DNA of 64,000 bases, taken from the NCBI GenBank assembly GCA_005223125.1, contig NJBH01000003.1:32001-96000 (forward strand). The letters are read 5' to 3'. Below are positions 45,411 through 52,886 of this stretch, piece after piece (position 1 is the stretch's first letter; each line of letters begins with the position of its first letter). The notes beneath the pieces were generated by a model. The model made no database searches. It was given only the letters and a program-made list of their open reading frames with translations, and was not told the origin of the DNA. The position numbers and the translations under genes are program-made. Source of the stretch: Promethearchaeota archaeon Loki_b32 (GTDB taxonomy: Archaea > Asgardarchaeota > Lokiarchaeia > Sigyniarchaeales > SOKP01).

Positions 45411-46844
45411 ATGAGTTTTTCTGACTTACCTTTTGAAGTGGGACCGGTTTACGAAGGCGAGCGAATACGTGGCAATCAAATGTATGTAGAGCTTGGCGGT
45501 CCAAAAATTGAAAAGCATTTTGAACTTACTAGGGTAAAAAAAGATAAAGAAATTGAGGATGGAAAGGTTACAATTATTGGACCTAATATAAAAGACATGG
45601 AAGAAGGAGGGCGCTATCCAATAGGAATCTTAGTGGAAGTCGCCGGACCTGAGCTGGAGGAGGACCTCGAGGCCGTGTTTGAGCGCAGAATTCATGAATT
45701 CTGTAACTTTGTAAATGGAATAATGCACTTGAACCAGAGGTATACGAACTGGATGAGGCTCTCGAAGAGTTTAATAGAGAAGGGCTTTAACGATCTTACT
45801 ATGCTTGGAACTGTTTTAATACGATTATATAAAGCGGAATTACCAATCATAAAAAAGGCACAAGTTACTTTAATAACTGACCCTGAAAAAATTGGAGAAA
45901 CTTATGATTTTGCTTTAGAAATATACAACAAGAGAGATGAAAGAGCCCGTAGTATCAACGATGAGGATGTAGACATGTTTTATGGCTGTGTCCTCTGCCA
46001 ATCATTTGCACCAACTCATGCCTGTTGTATTACACCAAATCGTATGAGTTTATGTGGATCGATCTCATGGTTTGATGCCAGAGCCGCTGCGCGTGTGGAC
46101 CCAAAGGGGCCACTGTTCGAAGTACCTATGGGCAAGTGTTTAAATGAATTAGCAGGTGAGTTTGAAGGAGTCAACGAAATGATAAAAAAGCGTTCACTTG
46201 GAGATATCGAAAGAATTTATCTCTACAGTGGAATGGAGTACCCTCACACTAGCTGTGGCTGCTTTGAAGCAATTGATTTCTTTATTCCCGAGACAGGTGC
46301 AGGTCATGGAATCATCGATCGAAACCACGATGGAGTTGCGATTAATGGTCTACCTTTTAGTGCAATGGCCAATCAGACGGGCGGAGGAAAACAAATGCCC
46401 GGTTTTAATGGTATAAGCATGCAATACATTATATCACCTAAATATCAAAAATATGATGGAATAAAATCAGGATTGGATTCTGGAATTCACACAATCGTAT
46501 GGATGGGTAAAACCGTTAAAGATCGAGTTTATGAATTTCTTCCAGAAGATCTAAGAGATAAAATTGCAACTGAAGAGGAAGTTGCAGATTTAAGTGATTT
46601 ACCAGCATGGTTAGAAAAAGTTGGTCATCCAATTATAGAAACTGAAGAATACAAGGCTGCGGTGAGTGGTGTTGAGGAAGAAGAATGGGAAGAAGAAGGA
46701 GCCATGGTTCCAATGGGAACTATTGGAATGACTATCCCGGGTGTCGGTGGAGCGGGTGGATTTAAAGTGATACTAAAGAATTGCAAGATCCACGCAGAGT
46801 CAATTATAATCAAAAAGATTGAGCCTAAACGGAAGAAGAAATAA
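45411..46844 (+). CDS. cdhC: Acetyl-CoA synthase beta subunit (A-cluster)
   Basis: YEGERIR, FYGCVLCQSFAPTH, LCG, HTSCGCFE; acidic C-terminal linker. Confidence 0.93.
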   Translation: MSFSDLPFEVGPVYEGERIRGNQMYVELGGPKIEKHFELTRVKKDKEIEDGKVTIIGPNIKDMEEGGRYPIGILVEVAGPELEEDLEAVFERRIHEFCNFVNGIMHLNQRYTNWMRLSKSLIEKGFNDLTMLGTVLIRLYKAELPIIKKAQVTLITDPEKIGETYDFALEIYNKRDERARSINDEDVDMFYGCVLCQSFAPTHACCITPNRMSLCGSISWFDARAAARVDPKGPLFEVPMGKCLNELAGEFEGVNEMIKKRSLGDIERIYLYSGMEYPHTSCGCFEAIDFFIPETGAGHGIIDRNHDGVAINGLPFSAMANQTGGGKQMPGFNGISMQYIISPKYQKYDGIKSGLDSGIHTIVWMGKTVKDRVYEFLPEDLRDKIATEEEVADLSDLPAWLEKVGHPIIETEEYKAAVSGVEEEEWEEEGAMVPMGTIGMTIPGVGGAGGFKVILKNCKIHAESIIIKKIEPKRKKK

Positions 46845-46956
46845 ACCTAATTATTTTTATTATTTTATTTTTATTATCTACAATTGCTTAATGACTTCTT
46901 TAATTGGTATTATCATAAGTATTTTTTTTAATTCTATTTTTTTTTTTATCCTGTAA

Positions 46957-47631
46957 TCATTTTCTTTTAATTTCATAAAAAATACTTGAATTATCAATTT
47001 CTACTATTGTTGTATCAATATGAAAATTAGAGGTTAGTGGTAAAAATTCTTCTGGTGTAATTGTTGTTGCTGTGAAACCATCTTTACATATGATGGTTCC
47101 ATTATAAGTTCTGTTATAATCAATTTCTCCAATTAAACCATATTTAGATTGTAATTGAAACCACTTTAGACGGTCATCCCAAAATTTTTCGGAATAACTT
47201 GAAAAAATAACGTATCCATCCTCTTTAGTGACCCTAATACTTTCTGATAATAACTTTAATTTGTCAACTTGAAAAGCAGATATTCCATTTTGAATACAGA
47301 TAACTAAATCAAACATACAGCTACGAAATACTAAATTTATTGCATCCATTGTTAACAATAAGCAATTTGGGCTGTGTTTAAGTATTTTCTTTGCTAAAAT
47401 CAAATTAGAATATACATTGTCGATTCCTATTACAATGGTAGCCTTAGTGGCGATTTGAGAGAGAAGACGTCCATATCCACATCCTAATTCTAAAACAACA
47501 TCTTTTGAGGTGATTTTTTGTAAGACATGATCTATTTCTGCTTTTAAATATTTTTGAATTCTCGGCGGAGCAATATCATAACATTTCTTCAATCTTAATG
47601 CAGATAATTTATCTTTGTAGTAATTTGTCAT
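46957..47631 (-). CDS. Class I SAM-dependent methyltransferase
   Basis: VLELGCGYGR, IGID, FDLVIC. Confidence 0.85.
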   Translation of the reverse strand: MTNYYKDKLSALRLKKCYDIAPPRIQKYLKAEIDHVLQKITSKDVVLELGCGYGRLLSQIATKATIVIGIDNVYSNLILAKKILKHSPNCLLLTMDAINLVFRSCMFDLVICIQNGISAFQVDKLKLLSESIRVTKEDGYVIFSSYSEKFWDDRLKWFQLQSKYGLIGEIDYNRTYNGTIICKDGFTATTITPEEFLPLTSNFHIDTTIVEIDNSSIFYEIKRK

Positions 47632-47933
47632 TCTTAGTCTAATTATGATTATTTGTCATATTAGATTTTACCATAAAAATTATTTCAACTTATAATCCTC
47701 AGTTGAATGAATATTATCTATTCTAATTATTTATTGGATTTTATCATCACCTTTGCATTTAATTTTAAAATAATGTAAACTGTCAGAATAGCGATCCTAG
47801 ATATTGGAAGGATAGAGTGATTTTTTTATTATTTTTTGATAAAAATGTAAAACTTTTTATTTCAAGAAATTAATTTACTTTTTGCCTTAGAATTCAATGT
47901 TATAAAATAAAATAATAATAGAGGTGGATTAAA

Positions 47934-48254
47934 TTGGTATATATCGTTACAAATAGTATCTTTCCGAGCCATAGAGCCCCAGAGGCTGGAAAAAAGTTCC
48001 TTGAACAGTTAAAAAAATATGCTGAAGATGAATCACTCGGAGAAACTCTTGTAAATGCAGCTGTAAAGACAACAACATGTGGAATAAGAGTTTTAAATGT
48101 AACAACAGTGAAAAAAGGGAAACTCGAAGAATCTCTAACTCGTGGTAATAAGATTTTAGCGATGTACAATGAAATTGAGGGATTTGAGTATACAATGGAG
48201 GTTTGGCAAGAACCAGCAGAAGCCTTAGCAACATTAGGATTGAAAATGCCTTAA
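47934..48254 (+). CDS. Hypothetical protein
   Basis: gaggtgg RBS before TTG; natural amino-acid composition. Confidence 0.65.
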   Translation: MVYIVTNSIFPSHRAPEAGKKFLEQLKKYAEDESLGETLVNAAVKTTTCGIRVLNVTTVKKGKLEESLTRGNKILAMYNEIEGFEYTMEVWQEPAEALATLGLKMP

Positions 48255-48439
48255 TAATTATACTCTTTTGTGTAAAAATTACGAATTTTTAAATTCATTT
48301 TTTTTCTTATTAAGGGCTAAAAATAAATCTTAAAAGAGATTCTTTAGGTTTTTTTTAGACAATAATTGTTTTAATTTTTTTGTTGTTTCAACTAAGCCTT
48401 TGAAAAAAAAGAAAGTGATATAAAGTCTTAAGAAATCTG

Positions 48440-48847
48440 TTATTCTTCCAATATTTCCTTTTTTCGCAGATATTCTTCTTCAGTGATTTCTCCTTTAGCA
48501 AATTGAATTTTTAAAATTTTCAATGGATCTTGATGGGCATCAGCAGTAGTTTCTTTCAAATCTTTATCCCCCTCAATAAGTCTAACCGATTCTTGTATAG
48601 TATTTTTAATTAAAGGTATCATTTGAAGATCCATTAATTTTTCAATGTAATCTCTCTGTTTTTCAACCAATTTACGCAACAGCTTCCCTGCGAATCCTTT
48701 GGGTGTAATGATTTCAAGACTTTTATCATAAGTTATATCAACACTAGAAGGATTTTCTATGAAACTTATATTCATTTGAATTTGACCGCCTTCTGAGGGA
48801 AAAAGTTGGAAGGTTGTTGAGAATTGTTCCCTAGGACCAACATCCAT
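48440..48847 (-). CDS. SHOCT domain protein (frame open upstream to about 48990)
   Basis: C-terminal LKIQFAKGEITEEEYLRKKEIL. Confidence 0.75.
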   Translation of the reverse strand: MDVGPREQFSTTFQLFPSEGGQIQMNISFIENPSSVDITYDKSLEIITPKGFAGKLLRKLVEKQRDYIEKLMDLQMIPLIKNTIQESVRLIEGDKDLKETTADAHQDPLKILKIQFAKGEITEEEYLRKKEILEE

Positions 48848-49228
48848 TATTTGATATTTGGTTCCTTTTATCCAGAAGTCTTTTTTTGTAAATGTATCTA
48901 CAAATTTATTAAAAAGTGCTTTTAGATTATGAGGTATTCCCTCAATTGTATAAATTATTTGAGCTACTTGATTAATATTATACTCCTCTTATAAAATTGT
49001 TAATATTATTGTAGTTTTTCTATTATTAAAATTTTTTCTGTAAATATATTTGTTAAAATATCTTGTTTCTTCGACGTAATTTTTTTTAACATTTGTGTTG
49101 TGCTATCGCGACGGAATAATTCAAGAAACATTAACATTTAAATATCAAAATTTTGTCGATTATTAGGAGTAATACTATAAAGAATATATTCTTTAATCGA
49201 TTTAGGATAAACAGTATCGTATATTAAA

Positions 49229-49693
49229 ATGCTGATTCGTGAAGCTGGTATATTATTTCAAGGTCTTCCCATAATTTTCAAAAGTTATCATAGAGCTAGT
49301 AAGGAAAAAATCAATCTAATTTGTACAAGTGGACTAATGAGTGGACTGCTAACCTTTGCCGAATGCTTAATGGAGCCAGTTGAATATTTTGAAAGCAGCA
49401 AATATACGATTATTTTTAAGAAAAGAAAGATAATAGATTACTTTTCAATTGAGCAAGAAGTTGTTGCTTTTCTTGTGATAGATAAAGACGAAAGACTTGA
49501 GAAGTATTTACATAAGACTGTTTTTCCATTATTAGAAAAACTTTTAAAGAAATTTACTTCTCAATTTAAGGGTTGTAATTTCACGAAAGCAAAACAATTT
49601 GAGAAATTTAAAAGGACACTTAATATATTATTTGGAACAGGTACATTAACCTTCGAAGAAAAGGTTGCTTCAATATTATTATCTCCAAAATAA
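49229..49693 (+). CDS. Hypothetical protein, possible longin-like fold
   Basis: beta-beta-alpha 'GLMSGLLTFA'-beta-beta-beta-alpha pattern. Confidence 0.5.
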   Translation: MLIREAGILFQGLPIIFKSYHRASKEKINLICTSGLMSGLLTFAECLMEPVEYFESSKYTIIFKKRKIIDYFSIEQEVVAFLVIDKDERLEKYLHKTVFPLLEKLLKKFTSQFKGCNFTKAKQFEKFKRTLNILFGTGTLTFEEKVASILLSPK

Positions 49694-50074
49694 TTCGGAG
49701 TAAAATCCTAGACATTAAAAAGTTTTTAAATCCAAACCAATCCGTAAATCTTCGATTTATTATTATTTGTATCAAAGTTCTTCTTATGGCTTTAGGATTT
49801 TTAAAAATATCAGTTAAAACATGAAGATTTTTATTATAATTAAACCAAAAAAAATAAAGATCACTCCACTATAAAAATAGTAAAAGTTGATTAAACCGAT
49901 ATCTAAATCTTTATTTTATTTTAATTGTATTTTTGATAATAAAACGTTTGACCTTTTTTGACATAATTATAAAATGAATTAAATACATTAATATCAAACC
50001 AAGAAAAGAAATTTCATTTTGAGGGGATTATAATAGAAAAATTTGATACAAATAACACTAAAAACTTTATTGAA

Positions 50075-50827
50075 TTGGAATCTAAAAGTTTAGAAAAATT
50101 ATTAAAAAATAATAATATTAATATAAGATTGAAGAAAAAACTGTCGAAAAAGCTGAAACATGTGTTAGTGATTGCTGATGGAATGAGAAGATATGCTTAT
50201 AAAAATAAAATCAATTTTGGTGAATCCTATTATTTAGCAACTAGAAAGATTGTTGAAATAAGTTTTTGGTTGCTAAAAAAATACGATATTGAGGAATTAA
50301 CGATATATGCATTAGCTTATAACAACACTTTGTACCGTAACTCATCAGAATTGAAACCGTTAAATCAAATTATTGATACAGCGGTTCAAGTTTGGATAAA
50401 CACTAAAGCTTTCATAGATTTGGTACAAATAAAATATTATGGTTTTATTAACGTTATGCCAAATTCAGTAAAGAACAATATTAGACTTCTTGAAAATTTA
50501 ACAAAAAATAATATAAAAAAATTAAATATATTATGGAATTATTCTGGACAACGAGAAATATTAAAAGCAATAAAAACTTTGAAATCTACCAAGATGGATT
50601 TGAATACATTAACACCTGAATCTTTTATGAATTTTTTAATGCTTAAATCATCTATAGATTTTATAATTAGAACTGGTGGTGATTTAAGAATCTCGGACGC
50701 TCCTCTATATCAAACTAGTTATGCTGAATTTTATTCGATTAAGAAATTATTCCCAGAAACAACTGAAAGGGAGATTATTAAAGCTCTTCAAGATTTTAAT
50801 TTACGAGAAAGGAGGTTTAGCCATTGA
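50075..50827 (+). CDS. Divergent cis-prenyltransferase (UppS-family) protein
   Basis: HVLVIADGMRRYA, NYSGQREI, DFIIRTGGDLRISD, YAEFY, RERRF. Confidence 0.8.
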   Translation: MESKSLEKLLKNNNINIRLKKKLSKKLKHVLVIADGMRRYAYKNKINFGESYYLATRKIVEISFWLLKKYDIEELTIYALAYNNTLYRNSSELKPLNQIIDTAVQVWINTKAFIDLVQIKYYGFINVMPNSVKNNIRLLENLTKNNIKKLNILWNYSGQREILKAIKTLKSTKMDLNTLTPESFMNFLMLKSSIDFIIRTGGDLRISDAPLYQTSYAEFYSIKKLFPETTEREIIKALQDFNLRERRFSH

Positions 50828-51456
50828 ATGTTGATACAATAAAAAAATTAGTATTAAAGAGGATTAGTGGAATTAGCTTCGCTGCTGATCACGACTTCAC
50901 CCATGCAGTGAGAGTAGTGAATTACGCGTTATTCATAGCAGATAAACTAAATGCTGATAAGGAAATTGTCACTACTGCAGGATATTTGCATGATATAGGA
51001 CGAATAGAGGATAAAGGTGAAGAGAAACATTCATTAAATAGTGTGGAACTTGCAACAGCCATTCTAAAAGATCTAAATTTAAATTCTCTTAAAGCTCAAG
51101 CGATTCTTGAAGTAATTAAAGTTCATTCCATTGAAGAAATAGGTAAATTAGAGCGTTTTTCAAAAGAAGCTTTGTGTATTTTTATTGCAGACAAAGTTGA
51201 TGGGCTCGGAGCAATTGGGATTTCTCGAATATTTTTAGAGGCTGGTAGAAAAGGAAGGGATATTAACAAGACTATTGAATATGTACATGAAAAATATTTC
51301 TCTAAAGAAGAGAAAATAATGAAAATTGCTAAGAGACTTAAATTAACTGAAGATCTAGTAGGACAAAAAATACTAGATCGGTTAAAATTTTCGAAAAAAT
51401 TTTTCAATCACTTAATTGAAGAATTAGAATTTTTTAATAAAACATTACATAATTAG
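50824..51456 (+). CDS. HD-domain phosphohydrolase
   Basis: HDFTHAVRV, LHDIGR, KHS, VHS, ADKVDGLGAIGISR; 4-bp overlap with the upstream gene. Confidence 0.88.
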   Translation: MNVDTIKKLVLKRISGISFAADHDFTHAVRVVNYALFIADKLNADKEIVTTAGYLHDIGRIEDKGEEKHSLNSVELATAILKDLNLNSLKAQAILEVIKVHSIEEIGKLERFSKEALCIFIADKVDGLGAIGISRIFLEAGRKGRDINKTIEYVHEKYFSKEEKIMKIAKRLKLTEDLVGQKILDRLKFSKKFFNHLIEELEFFNKTLHN

Positions 51457-51776
51457 AATATATTAAAAAGCAAAACTACCATTTCTCATAAGAAAATTAC
51501 AGATTCTTTCGAAATATATTCGCGGTAGAATCTTATTAATTAAAATTTAACGGATACTCATATCATATCAGCGTTTTCAAGATTGAGTATTCTTGAAAAA
51601 TAAACTTTACGAGTGAATCGGTATTAACTTGTGGGAACAGTTCTGATTAAAATTACTTTAAACCTTTATAGTCAAGATAATTAAATTTTTAAAAGTATTA
51701 GAAAAGATTATTTCTTTATCAGCTTACAATCTATTCCTATTTAAATTAAATAAAAAAAGAGAAGAATCTAAGAGTT

Positions 51777-52886
51777 CTAAGATTTAAATTGTTCTTTAAT
51801 TCTATTATAAAGTGGTTTTATACTGTCTAGACAATTTACATCTAATAAATTATTATGACCAAGCGGATAATACGCGAGTATAATTGAATCAAAAAGAGTC
51901 CAATTTATATTATTAAACCCAATATCGTATCCTAAAACTTTAAACCCTTTTTCTAAAGCAAGTTTCATTGATTGTACTCCATTGTGAGTGGTTGGAATTT
52001 TCCAGAGGATTATTCTCCAATTCTTATAGACCTTTAATAAGTTATTTATAGATTTTTCTTTAATATAACCATACAATTTTACGATCGCGCTATAATAATT
52101 TTTAGAGACACCATAAAGTTCATACCCTTTATTATTTTTCCATTTTTCAAAATATAAAGTATCGTCTTTCATTCTTTTACATTTACTTTTCATGTATTTA
52201 TAGAAAAATACTAAAACCTCATTATCTAATAAAACCACATTTTTATCCCTTTTTTTCCAGAGATTTCTAAAGATCATCGAAAAGATAATTGCCGTTTCCT
52301 CATGCTGTGGAGGACATGGACAATTATCATCAACTTCGAATTCTCTCTTATCTCCAAAATTAATATAAGCAGGGATTATACTATAAGGTACTGCTCCAGC
52401 ATTTTGAGCAACAGCTTGAATTTTAATCTGAGAACCTCGTACCTCTGAATCAAGTCTTAAAACATCTTTGAATTGAGGCATTTTTGTTACCGTTATAAGC
52501 CCACCTACAGCTATTTTTGTTGTAATTCCTAATCCTTGGAACTTTTTCCTTGTAATCAAACTACCCGCATGAGCAATATATCTCTCCTTTTCAACCAAAG
52601 CAGCACCAGTAATTTCTTTTATTTTATTTTCAATTAATTCACCAACAACCCAAAATTTATTTGGATCTGAGATTTCTTTTTTTAGAAGTGTATCGTCATA
52701 AACTATGGGATTAATGTATTCATAATTGTAAATTTCTTTGAACATCTTTGAGATGTTTTTAGCATCTTTAGGTGTTGCAAACCTTAATCCAAATTCTTGT
52801 CCATCTTTAGATAAAAATTTCTGAAAATAAACATCTTCTTCTTTGAGAATTAACTTTTCTTTAAATGTTGTTTCCATTCTAATCAC
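51777..52886 (-). CDS. GNAT-domain protein
   Basis: RFATPKDA...KFQGLGI acetyl-CoA motif. Confidence 0.65.
   Translation of the reverse strand: MIRMETTFKEKLILKEEDVYFQKFLSKDGQEFGLRFATPKDAKNISKMFKEIYNYEYINPIVYDDTLLKKEISDPNKFWVVGELIENKIKEITGAALVEKERYIAHAGSLITRKKFQGLGITTKIAVGGLITVTKMPQFKDVLRLDSEVRGSQIKIQAVAQNAGAVPYSIIPAYINFGDKREFEVDDNCPCPPQHEETAIIFSMIFRNLWKKRDKNVVLLDNEVLVFFYKYMKSKCKRMKDDTLYFEKWKNNKGYELYGVSKNYYSAIVKLYGYIKEKSINNLLKVYKNWRIILWKIPTTHNGVQSMKLALEKGFKVLGYDIGFNNINWTLFDSIILAYYPLGHNNLLDVNCLDSIKPLYNRIKEQFKS

Follow-up and report, generated by a model that had tools for sequence, protein, structure and literature searches.

Among cis-prenyltransferases (cis-PTs), the described enzymes most useful for comparison here are UppS, with solved structures from Escherichia coli (1jp3 and 1x06) and Campylobacter jejuni (3ugs), and the short-chain and irregular plant cis-isoprenyl diphosphate synthases zFPS (5hxo), NDPS1 (7vpc), CPT2 (8wu6) and lavandulyl diphosphate synthase (LPPS; 5hc6). 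A cis-PT-type fold has reportedly also been repurposed in the tuberculosinyl-adenosine transferase of Mycobacterium tuberculosis, Rv3378c, for prenyl transfer to an acceptor other than isopentenyl diphosphate (IPP). Among HD-domain phosphohydrolases, the nearest described group comprises Bacillus subtilis YpgQ (5dqv) and E. coli YedJ; YpgQ is a Mn-dependent diphosphatase of (deoxy)nucleoside triphosphates, (d)NTPs, with ligands H29, H58, D59 and D124 (PMC8177086). Here we describe a two-gene unit that brings these two kinds of enzyme together, located at positions 50,075 to 51,456 of a 64,000-nucleotide stretch (hereafter the window) of contig NJBH01000003.1 from Promethearchaeota archaeon Loki_b32. 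We tentatively favour the reading, which may well prove wrong, that this unit is an accessory module in which a divergent cis-PT probably makes a short Z-prenyl diphosphate that a translationally coupled HD hydrolase then dephosphorylates.

The unit comprises the following features:

50075..50827, + strand: accessory cis-PT, 250 aa counted from the first TTG (PF01255)
50810..50815, + strand: AGGAGG ribosome-binding site of the HD gene, within the 3' end of the cis-PT gene, 8 nt upstream of TTG 50824 (direct reading)
50824..51456, + strand: YpgQ/YedJ-like HD-domain phosphohydrolase, 210 aa (PF01966)

Both open reading frames (ORFs) lie on the forward strand at the positions given in the original prediction, whose description of a two-gene unit with a TTGA overlap and flanking gaps of more than 300 bp was confirmed. 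The cis-PT stop codon TGA (50825-50827) and the HD start codon TTG (50824-50826) share the 4-nt overlap, and the non-coding gaps around the pair measure 381 bp (49694-50074) and 320 bp (51457-51776). The unit had also been called very AT-rich; its GC content is indeed 27%, but the adjoining genes are at 25-29% (most of the window is at 26-43%), so AT-richness is no sign of foreign origin. The start of the cis-PT gene is ambiguous. Its orthologue in metagenome contig L016 (SMTZ1_10008273) begins at an ATG 23 codons upstream, where the window has AAG, and the upstream frame is open in the window also (window 49973-50074 versus L016:3134-3202); a 219-aa form in one public NCBI record implies a start that lies 31 codons further inside the frame. 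An Rfam search of the intergenic gaps gave no match.

The genome (4.13 Mb, 95.5% complete) holds two PF01255 genes, the locus copy and a copy on contig C21 that scores 193.6 bits against the Pfam profile and carries the classical motifs DGNRRW, FGH, LSLEN and RRMGR. As this canonical cis-PT is present, the locus cis-PT is accessory, in agreement with the earlier view that it is not the housekeeping enzyme. The locus protein itself matches PF01255 at 131.1 bits (cut-off 27, E = 5.8e-38) over profile positions 1-218 of 219, and its score of 106.7 bits against TIGR00055, the NCBIfam uppS equivalog, is just under the cut-off of 109.55; with this sub-cut-off score and the canonical copy on C21, it falls outside the housekeeping UppS/dolichol-pathway enzymes. 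In 40 relatives, of which 24 are congeners and 16 come from the same order, the locus cis-PT finds the canonical copy only, at 26-33% identity, and that copy is kept in all 40, none of which has an orthologue of the locus gene. A wider but less exhaustive hidden Markov model (HMM) sweep of 400 Asgard genomes found no similar gene, the few two-copy genomes carrying two canonical-type genes; the subfamily profile, A2, fails to tell accessory and canonical copies apart within Asgard genomes. In one genome (G286, same family), both canonical copies (C173:18168-18836 and C121:190-858) have one in-frame TGA, which might be explained by a pseudogene, by duplication in the assembly or by recoding of the codon.

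The AlphaFold2 (AF2) model of the locus cis-PT (pLDDT 89.5, pTM 0.88) has the UPPS-type alpha/beta fold, with Foldseek matches to zFPS, NDPS1 and UPPS at TM-scores of 0.8-0.9 and E of about 1e-18. Among solved proteins, short-chain plant cis-PTs come closest in both sequence and structure, narrowly and at 28-30% identity, with UPPS and DPPS close behind. The locus protein shares with UppS the fold (TM about 0.8), the catalytic Asp26 and Arg30 and the IPP site; it differs in being a second copy and in a set of replaced residues. Alignment with E. coli UppS bore out the motif changes reported earlier: DGN to DGM, GH to SY, FSSEN to LAYNN (Ser71 replaced by Ala, Asn74 kept) and C-terminal RFG to RFS. 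It also confirmed that the catalytic Asp and the IPP-site arginines are conserved (D26, R194 and R200), and R30, N74, R77, S202, E213 and R242 are kept as well. The possibility of a non-catalytic, NgBR-like subunit was rejected in view of the kept catalytic residues.

We then placed these changes in a census of 169 cis-PTs, using E. coli UppS numbering. Asn28 (N in 157 of the 167 other cis-PTs), Ser71 (S in 165 of 167) and the glycine of the C-terminal RXG motif, Gly244 (G in all 167), are replaced in the window lineage by Met, Ala and Ser, respectively. The replaced positions are residues 37, 82 and 249 of the locus protein. These replacements are private to that lineage, as is Trp in place of Ala143. 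The claim of an altered allylic site stands, and three of the changes hit near-invariant positions. Tyr at the His43 site is found in 31 of 32 members of the accessory clade described below and also in 65 of 135 other cis-PTs, mostly archaeal and including the sole cis-PT found in genomes of one Asgard family. This Tyr, being common in archaeal cis-PTs, says little and is no sign of chemistry like that of Rv3378c.

Published work bears on several of these sites. The Asn28 site is occupied in LPPS by His78, which is key to head-to-middle coupling (PMC7839719), and in tomato SlNPPS the change N88H at this site raises irregular coupling, whereas twelve other residues at N88, Met not included, gave no irregular activity (PMC9297866). 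The window cis-PT has Met here and so lacks the His hallmark, which does occur in clade members P0060 and P0074. At the His43 site, the zFPS variant H103Y yields lavandulyl diphosphate (PMC9297866); Tyr51 of the locus protein aligns with this mutated Tyr in 5hxo, at the position where Tyr is common in ordinary archaeal cis-PTs. A Ser/Thr and Asn pair has been linked to proton elimination, and MM_0014, a versatile enzyme with no RXG motif, performs O-prenylation (PMC8131916). With regard to chain length, bulky residues at the A92/E96 positions have been argued to shorten cis-PT products (PMC6696123), and the locus cis-PT, unlike UppS, has Trp at both the E96 and A143 positions; its helix alpha-3 is not shorter than that of E. 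coli UppS. To judge from these residues, the IPP site is intact and the protein is probably an active enzyme, with a tunnel that has probably become narrower and an S1 site that has probably changed. Irregular coupling chemistry is possible, but no specific known signature indicates it.

An exhaustive phmmer search returned 5237 cis-PT homologues, the best representatives listed being 29-49% identical to the query, whose own entry was excluded. In both FastTree and IQ-TREE trees, the window cis-PT belongs to a 34-sequence clade (SH-like support 96; SH-aLRT 99) apart from the Asgard canonical enzymes. Its members (P0032-P0094) include P0037, or MCK4327519.1, from a Diapherotrites/Iainarchaeota metagenome-assembled genome (MAG). 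Clade hallmarks that the locus cis-PT shares, some of which the original prediction had counted as departures, are Tyr at His43, an L-S-Y-x-N motif in which one extra residue precedes K/R, FPE replacing WPDF, and Trp at the Glu96 equivalent of helix alpha-3; a further hallmark is S-(D/G)-(C/A)-P-L-(Y/F) replacing the SNFLLW of UppS, which reads SDAPLY in the locus protein. The window cis-PT sits on a long stem and is 32-41% identical to other clade members. Long-branch effects may thus bear on its placement; however, the shared motifs back it independently of the tree. Duplication of the canonical gene within the lineage was tested as another origin and rejected (approximately unbiased test against the Asgard canonical grouping, log-likelihood difference 98, p = 0.0018).

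Two clade members were placed in genomes, both of them Iainarchaeota (DPANN) MAGs, G042 and G067, where they are second copies alongside a canonical cis-PT. At both loci (L139:7031-8469 in G042 and L140:3719-5166 in G067) the gene for a UbiA-family prenyltransferase resembling digeranylgeranylglyceryl phosphate (DGGGP) synthase comes first, and the clade cis-PT gene follows it in translational coupling. As a control, we examined 80 other cis-PT loci obtained by a scan with profile A3 on a generic motif, mostly canonical enzymes of DPANN, candidate phyla radiation (CPR) and Clostridia genomes, and none has a UbiA homologue within 5 kb. The UbiA coupling in two genomes suggests that the clade supplies a dedicated prenyl donor, and in G042 and G067 the pair is possibly a dedicated lipid or prenylation module. 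The clade thus looks like a family of accessory enzymes supplying a prenyl donor to differing partners. The two placed members differ from the window cis-PT in following a UbiA gene and not being paired with an HD gene, and they do not share the Asn28, Ser71 and Gly244 changes. The A3 HMM at E <= 1e-64, a threshold that catches about half of the clade, found none in 301 genomes of the Micrarchaeota phylum and 401 of the Nanoarchaeota phylum, which is a weak sign that the clade is rare.

Other arrangements of cis-PT genes were seen in the course of these searches. The UbiA/cis-PT pair of G067 has a trans-polyprenyl synthase gene two genes away. An Aenigmarchaeota MAG (G045:C2:96948-98376) has tandem cis-PT genes 77 bp apart, scoring 232.7 and 183.6 bits, which may encode a heteromeric cis-PT. 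In P0172, a 344-aa metagenomic protein, an acylphosphatase domain (PF00708) is fused to a full cis-PT domain, and another phospho-hydrolase-type domain is thus joined to a cis-PT.

The HD protein matches PF01966 at 60.9 bits (cut-off 22, E = 1.8e-16) and scores 46.8 bits, far below the cut-off of 286, against the NCBIfam equivalog PRK10119. Its nearest solved relative by sequence is YpgQ (phmmer E = 4e-13), and YpgQ and structural-genomics homologues including YedJ are also nearest by fold (Foldseek ranks 1-5, TM 0.66-0.76), although identity over the structural alignment is only about 21-23%. Residues H27, H56, D57 and D123 align with the four YpgQ ligands, giving the same H...HD...D arrangement; they are invariant in the HD family alignment A4, in which H23, D24, R30, H69, H101 and D126 are also conserved. 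The protein is, on the strength of these residues, a competent metal-dependent phosphohydrolase, and since all four ligands are kept and YpgQ is a diphosphatase, a role as a diphosphate hydrolase is favoured. Unlike the locus HD gene, YpgQ has not been reported as coupled to a prenyltransferase. A nucleotide-type diphosphatase that accepts a short prenyl diphosphate has a precedent in E. coli RdgB, a dNTP pyrophosphohydrolase that hydrolyses lavandulyl diphosphate (bioRxiv 10.1101/2025.06.28.662091). Paralogues of the HD protein, at 28-38% identity, are common in the relatives and do not adjoin a cis-PT. In several congeners (G007:C1, G022:C5, G016:C37, G014:C228 and G023:C1), the contig with the canonical cis-PT also carries an HD paralogue 13-17 kb away, an arrangement that suggests conserved synteny and not an operon.

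Comparison with congeners and with L016 defines the surroundings of the unit:

49229..49693, + strand: conserved 154-aa gene, left flank, outside the unit; orthologues 71-74% identical in congeners, beside the 369-aa gene
49694..51776: lineage-specific insertion of about 2.1 kb carrying both genes (congener comparison)
49971..51457: segment inverted relative to both flanks in L016 (blastn)
51777..52886, - strand: conserved 369-aa gene, right flank, outside the unit; matches in 22 of 24 congeners

In the four congener loci L040-L043, the orthologues of these two flanking genes stand next to each other in convergent orientation with 33-79 bp between them, as compared to a spacing of 2083 bp in the window. 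The pair is intact, with the same 4-nt overlap, in two metagenome contigs, L015 (98% protein identity) and L016 (86%). By blastn, L016:3101-4585 runs in the same direction as window 49971-51457, and the matches of both flanks run in the opposite one; the inverted segment, which differs in orientation between two closely related lineages, comprises exactly both genes and about 100 bp of upstream DNA. The spacer beside the 154-aa gene is common to the window and L016 and lies outside the inverted part. The simplest reading is a single insertion followed by inversion of only the two genes. We found no inverted repeats above AT-rich noise at the inversion breakpoints, no integrase or transposase at the borders of the insertion, and no repeat copies elsewhere in the genome of its non-coding ends or flanking DNA. 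Between the window and L016, dN/dS is 0.20 for the cis-PT gene and 0.14 for the HD gene (flanking genes, 0.18 and 0.09), and these low values indicate that both genes are maintained by purifying selection. Together with the Pfam scores and the intact copies in L015 and L016, they mark the two frames as genuine genes and not chance ORFs.

The 369-aa gene has full-length orthologues in 20 genomes (57-72% identical) and is tandemly duplicated in some (G003:C9, G034:C32 and G039:C228); in L016 it is co-directional with the cis-PT/HD pair and directly upstream of it. Neither flanking protein has a match in Pfam or NCBIfam searches. Genes for subunits of carbon monoxide dehydrogenase/acetyl-CoA synthase (CODH/ACS) lie just upstream of the locus, and the further neighbours are metabolic or housekeeping genes. 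A second lineage-specific insertion occupies window 46845-49228, between cdhC (45411-46844) and the 154-aa gene, which are only about 300 bp apart in congeners. It contains genes for an S-adenosylmethionine (SAM) methyltransferase (46957-47631, - strand) and a SHOCT-domain protein (48440-48847, - strand) together with small overlapping ORFs; in L016 the same place holds a major facilitator superfamily (MFS) transporter, a PIG-L/ceramidase-like protein and a gene resembling iron-containing alcohol dehydrogenase (Fe-ADH). This region is a variable hotspot.

On the reading that we prefer, the cis-PT would form a Z-prenyl diphosphate by joining IPP to an allylic diphosphate or, less likely, by coupling two allylic units irregularly. 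The chain would probably be short to medium, unlike the C55-type carrier lipid of the canonical paralogue, and the co-translated YpgQ-type hydrolase would strip the diphosphate or one phosphate to leave a free prenol or a prenyl phosphate. One Lokiarchaeal lineage has probably gained this module, which probably yields a minor isoprenoid alcohol or phosphate. In favour of this account, the pair is translationally coupled and kept as a unit in three assemblies. The Trp residues at the E96 and A143 positions, read with the proposed effect of bulky A92/E96 residues, favour a shorter product, and the kept YpgQ ligands favour the hydrolase step. The low dN/dS values, the canonical copy on C21, the kept catalytic residues, the confident fold model, the slight lead of short-chain plant cis-PTs among solved matches, the RdgB precedent and the UbiA coupling in the two Iainarchaeota MAGs speak for it as well. 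We infer from such evidence the substrate link between the two proteins, the chain length and any irregular chemistry; removal of phosphate from the cis-PT product by the HD protein is plausible.

A number of observations weigh on the other side. The pairing was seen only in one narrow Lokiarchaeal lineage: there is no HD homologue within 5 kb of any of the 80 control loci, the pair is absent from the 40 relatives, and the viral contigs searched hold no relatives of it. With the pairing so restricted, the functional link is not confirmable by comparative genomics. A search for fused cis-PT/HD proteins found none, and a literature search for 'cis-prenyltransferase' together with 'HD domain' returned no paper naming both. 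The accessory clade is known from sequence alone, and the only characterised relative of the HD protein, YpgQ, acts on (d)NTPs, not lipids (PMC8177086). The chain-length argument stands on two positions and an analogy, and the loss of Asn28, Ser71 and the RXG glycine could, as residue changes, point to weak or altered activity rather than ordinary condensation. A further-reaching version of the same account seems unlikely to hold in full: it would make the pair a two-step pathway dedicated to an unusual small isoprenoid (for example an irregular or all-Z short prenol or prenyl phosphate), in which the replaced residues retune the coupling, the HD protein is the first dedicated prenyl-diphosphate hydrolase of its family, and the clade represents unrecognised specialised archaeal prenyl-donor synthases.

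It is also unlikely, although it deserves a serious hearing, that the HD protein is functionally independent, being a house-cleaning diphosphatase of nucleotides like YpgQ that travelled and is co-transcribed with the cis-PT, whose product would be used elsewhere. The activity of YpgQ on (d)NTPs (PMC8177086), the common paralogues that do not stand beside a cis-PT, and the failure to see the pairing in other lineages all accord with such independence. However, the overlap and the internal ribosome-binding site have been kept over about 15% DNA divergence and through the inversion of the two genes, and both genes arrived as one insertion.

A doubtful alternative is that the cis-PT makes a regular long-chain polyprenyl diphosphate and the HD protein serves as a soluble phosphatase, the two supplying a second lipid phosphate as glycosyl carrier for a lineage-specific glycan. 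In its favour, every IPP-binding and catalytic residue is kept, helix alpha-3 is no shorter than in E. coli UppS, and genes for a cytidylyltransferase-like protein and membrane proteins lie nearby; these genes are, however, also present in congeners without the pair. We know of no archaeal enzyme that dephosphorylates polyprenyl diphosphate, which leaves room for this role, but the known carrier-lipid phosphatases (UppP/BacA and PAP2) are membrane proteins, whereas the HD model shows nothing membrane-like, though membrane segments were not searched for. The two Trp residues in the tunnel argue for a narrower passage.

The model put forward in the original prediction, in which, as with Rv3378c or MM_0014, the cis-PT fold passes a prenyl group not to IPP but to another phosphorylated acceptor, such as a nucleotide or glycerol phosphate, and the HD protein then dephosphorylates the product, now appears improbable. 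It draws on the replacement of Asn28, Ser71 and the RXG glycine only in the locus cis-PT, on the His at the Asn28 site of LPPS and the effect of N88H in SlNPPS (PMC7839719, PMC9297866), on O-prenylation by MM_0014 without RXG (PMC8131916) and on the nucleotide binding of the HD protein's relatives (PMC8177086). The Asn28 site is, however, Met and not His, and the twelve other SlNPPS substitutions (Met not tried) were without irregular activity (PMC9297866). The proposed likeness to Rv3378c failed in direct comparison, as Rv3378c (3wqk) shows no significant relation to the subfamily profile (E = 0.69, 12.6 bits), against which a true UPPS scores E = 5e-63; MM_0014 is a distant match (E = 1e-5). 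Nor does anything point away from IPP as the acceptor, as the residues for its diphosphate are intact (Arg194, Arg200, Ser202, Glu213 and Arg242), and the neighbours scanned include no diterpene or other terpene cyclase and no nucleotide-metabolism partner.

That the pair is an anti-virus defence cassette (the original prediction named a defence metabolite among the possible products) or a selfish passenger in a variable hotspot is highly improbable: HD domains do occur in defence nucleases, the insertion is recent, adjoins the one at 46845-49228 and is seen in both orientations, and the SAM methyltransferase nearby matches a PADLOC model via a generic domain, but the cis-PT has no match in PADLOC or PHROGs, PADLOC ties the HD protein only marginally to Cas3-HD (E = 6e-4, no passing stretch) and its matches in PHROGs are marginal, generic HD ones, the viral contigs hold no relatives, the borders are without repeats, integrase or transposase, and the neighbours are CODH/ACS and other housekeeping genes.

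The two proteins are thus of known enzyme kinds, one of them an unusual cis-PT variant, and we regard them as a moderate lead and not a discovery; nothing links the pair to defence or core biology. Most of what is known of lipids and terpenoids in Asgard archaea has been deduced from genomes, and our preferred reading, if true, would give these organisms a further, specialised isoprenoid. Outside bacteria, to our knowledge, the enzymes that take phosphate off prenyl diphosphates are poorly known. The same reading would give the accessory cis-PT clade its first function and would identify an HD-family hydrolase acting on a prenyl diphosphate. For the cis-PT family as a whole, the three private substitutions at near-invariant sites are a natural test of the roles of Asn28, Ser71 and the RXG glycine.

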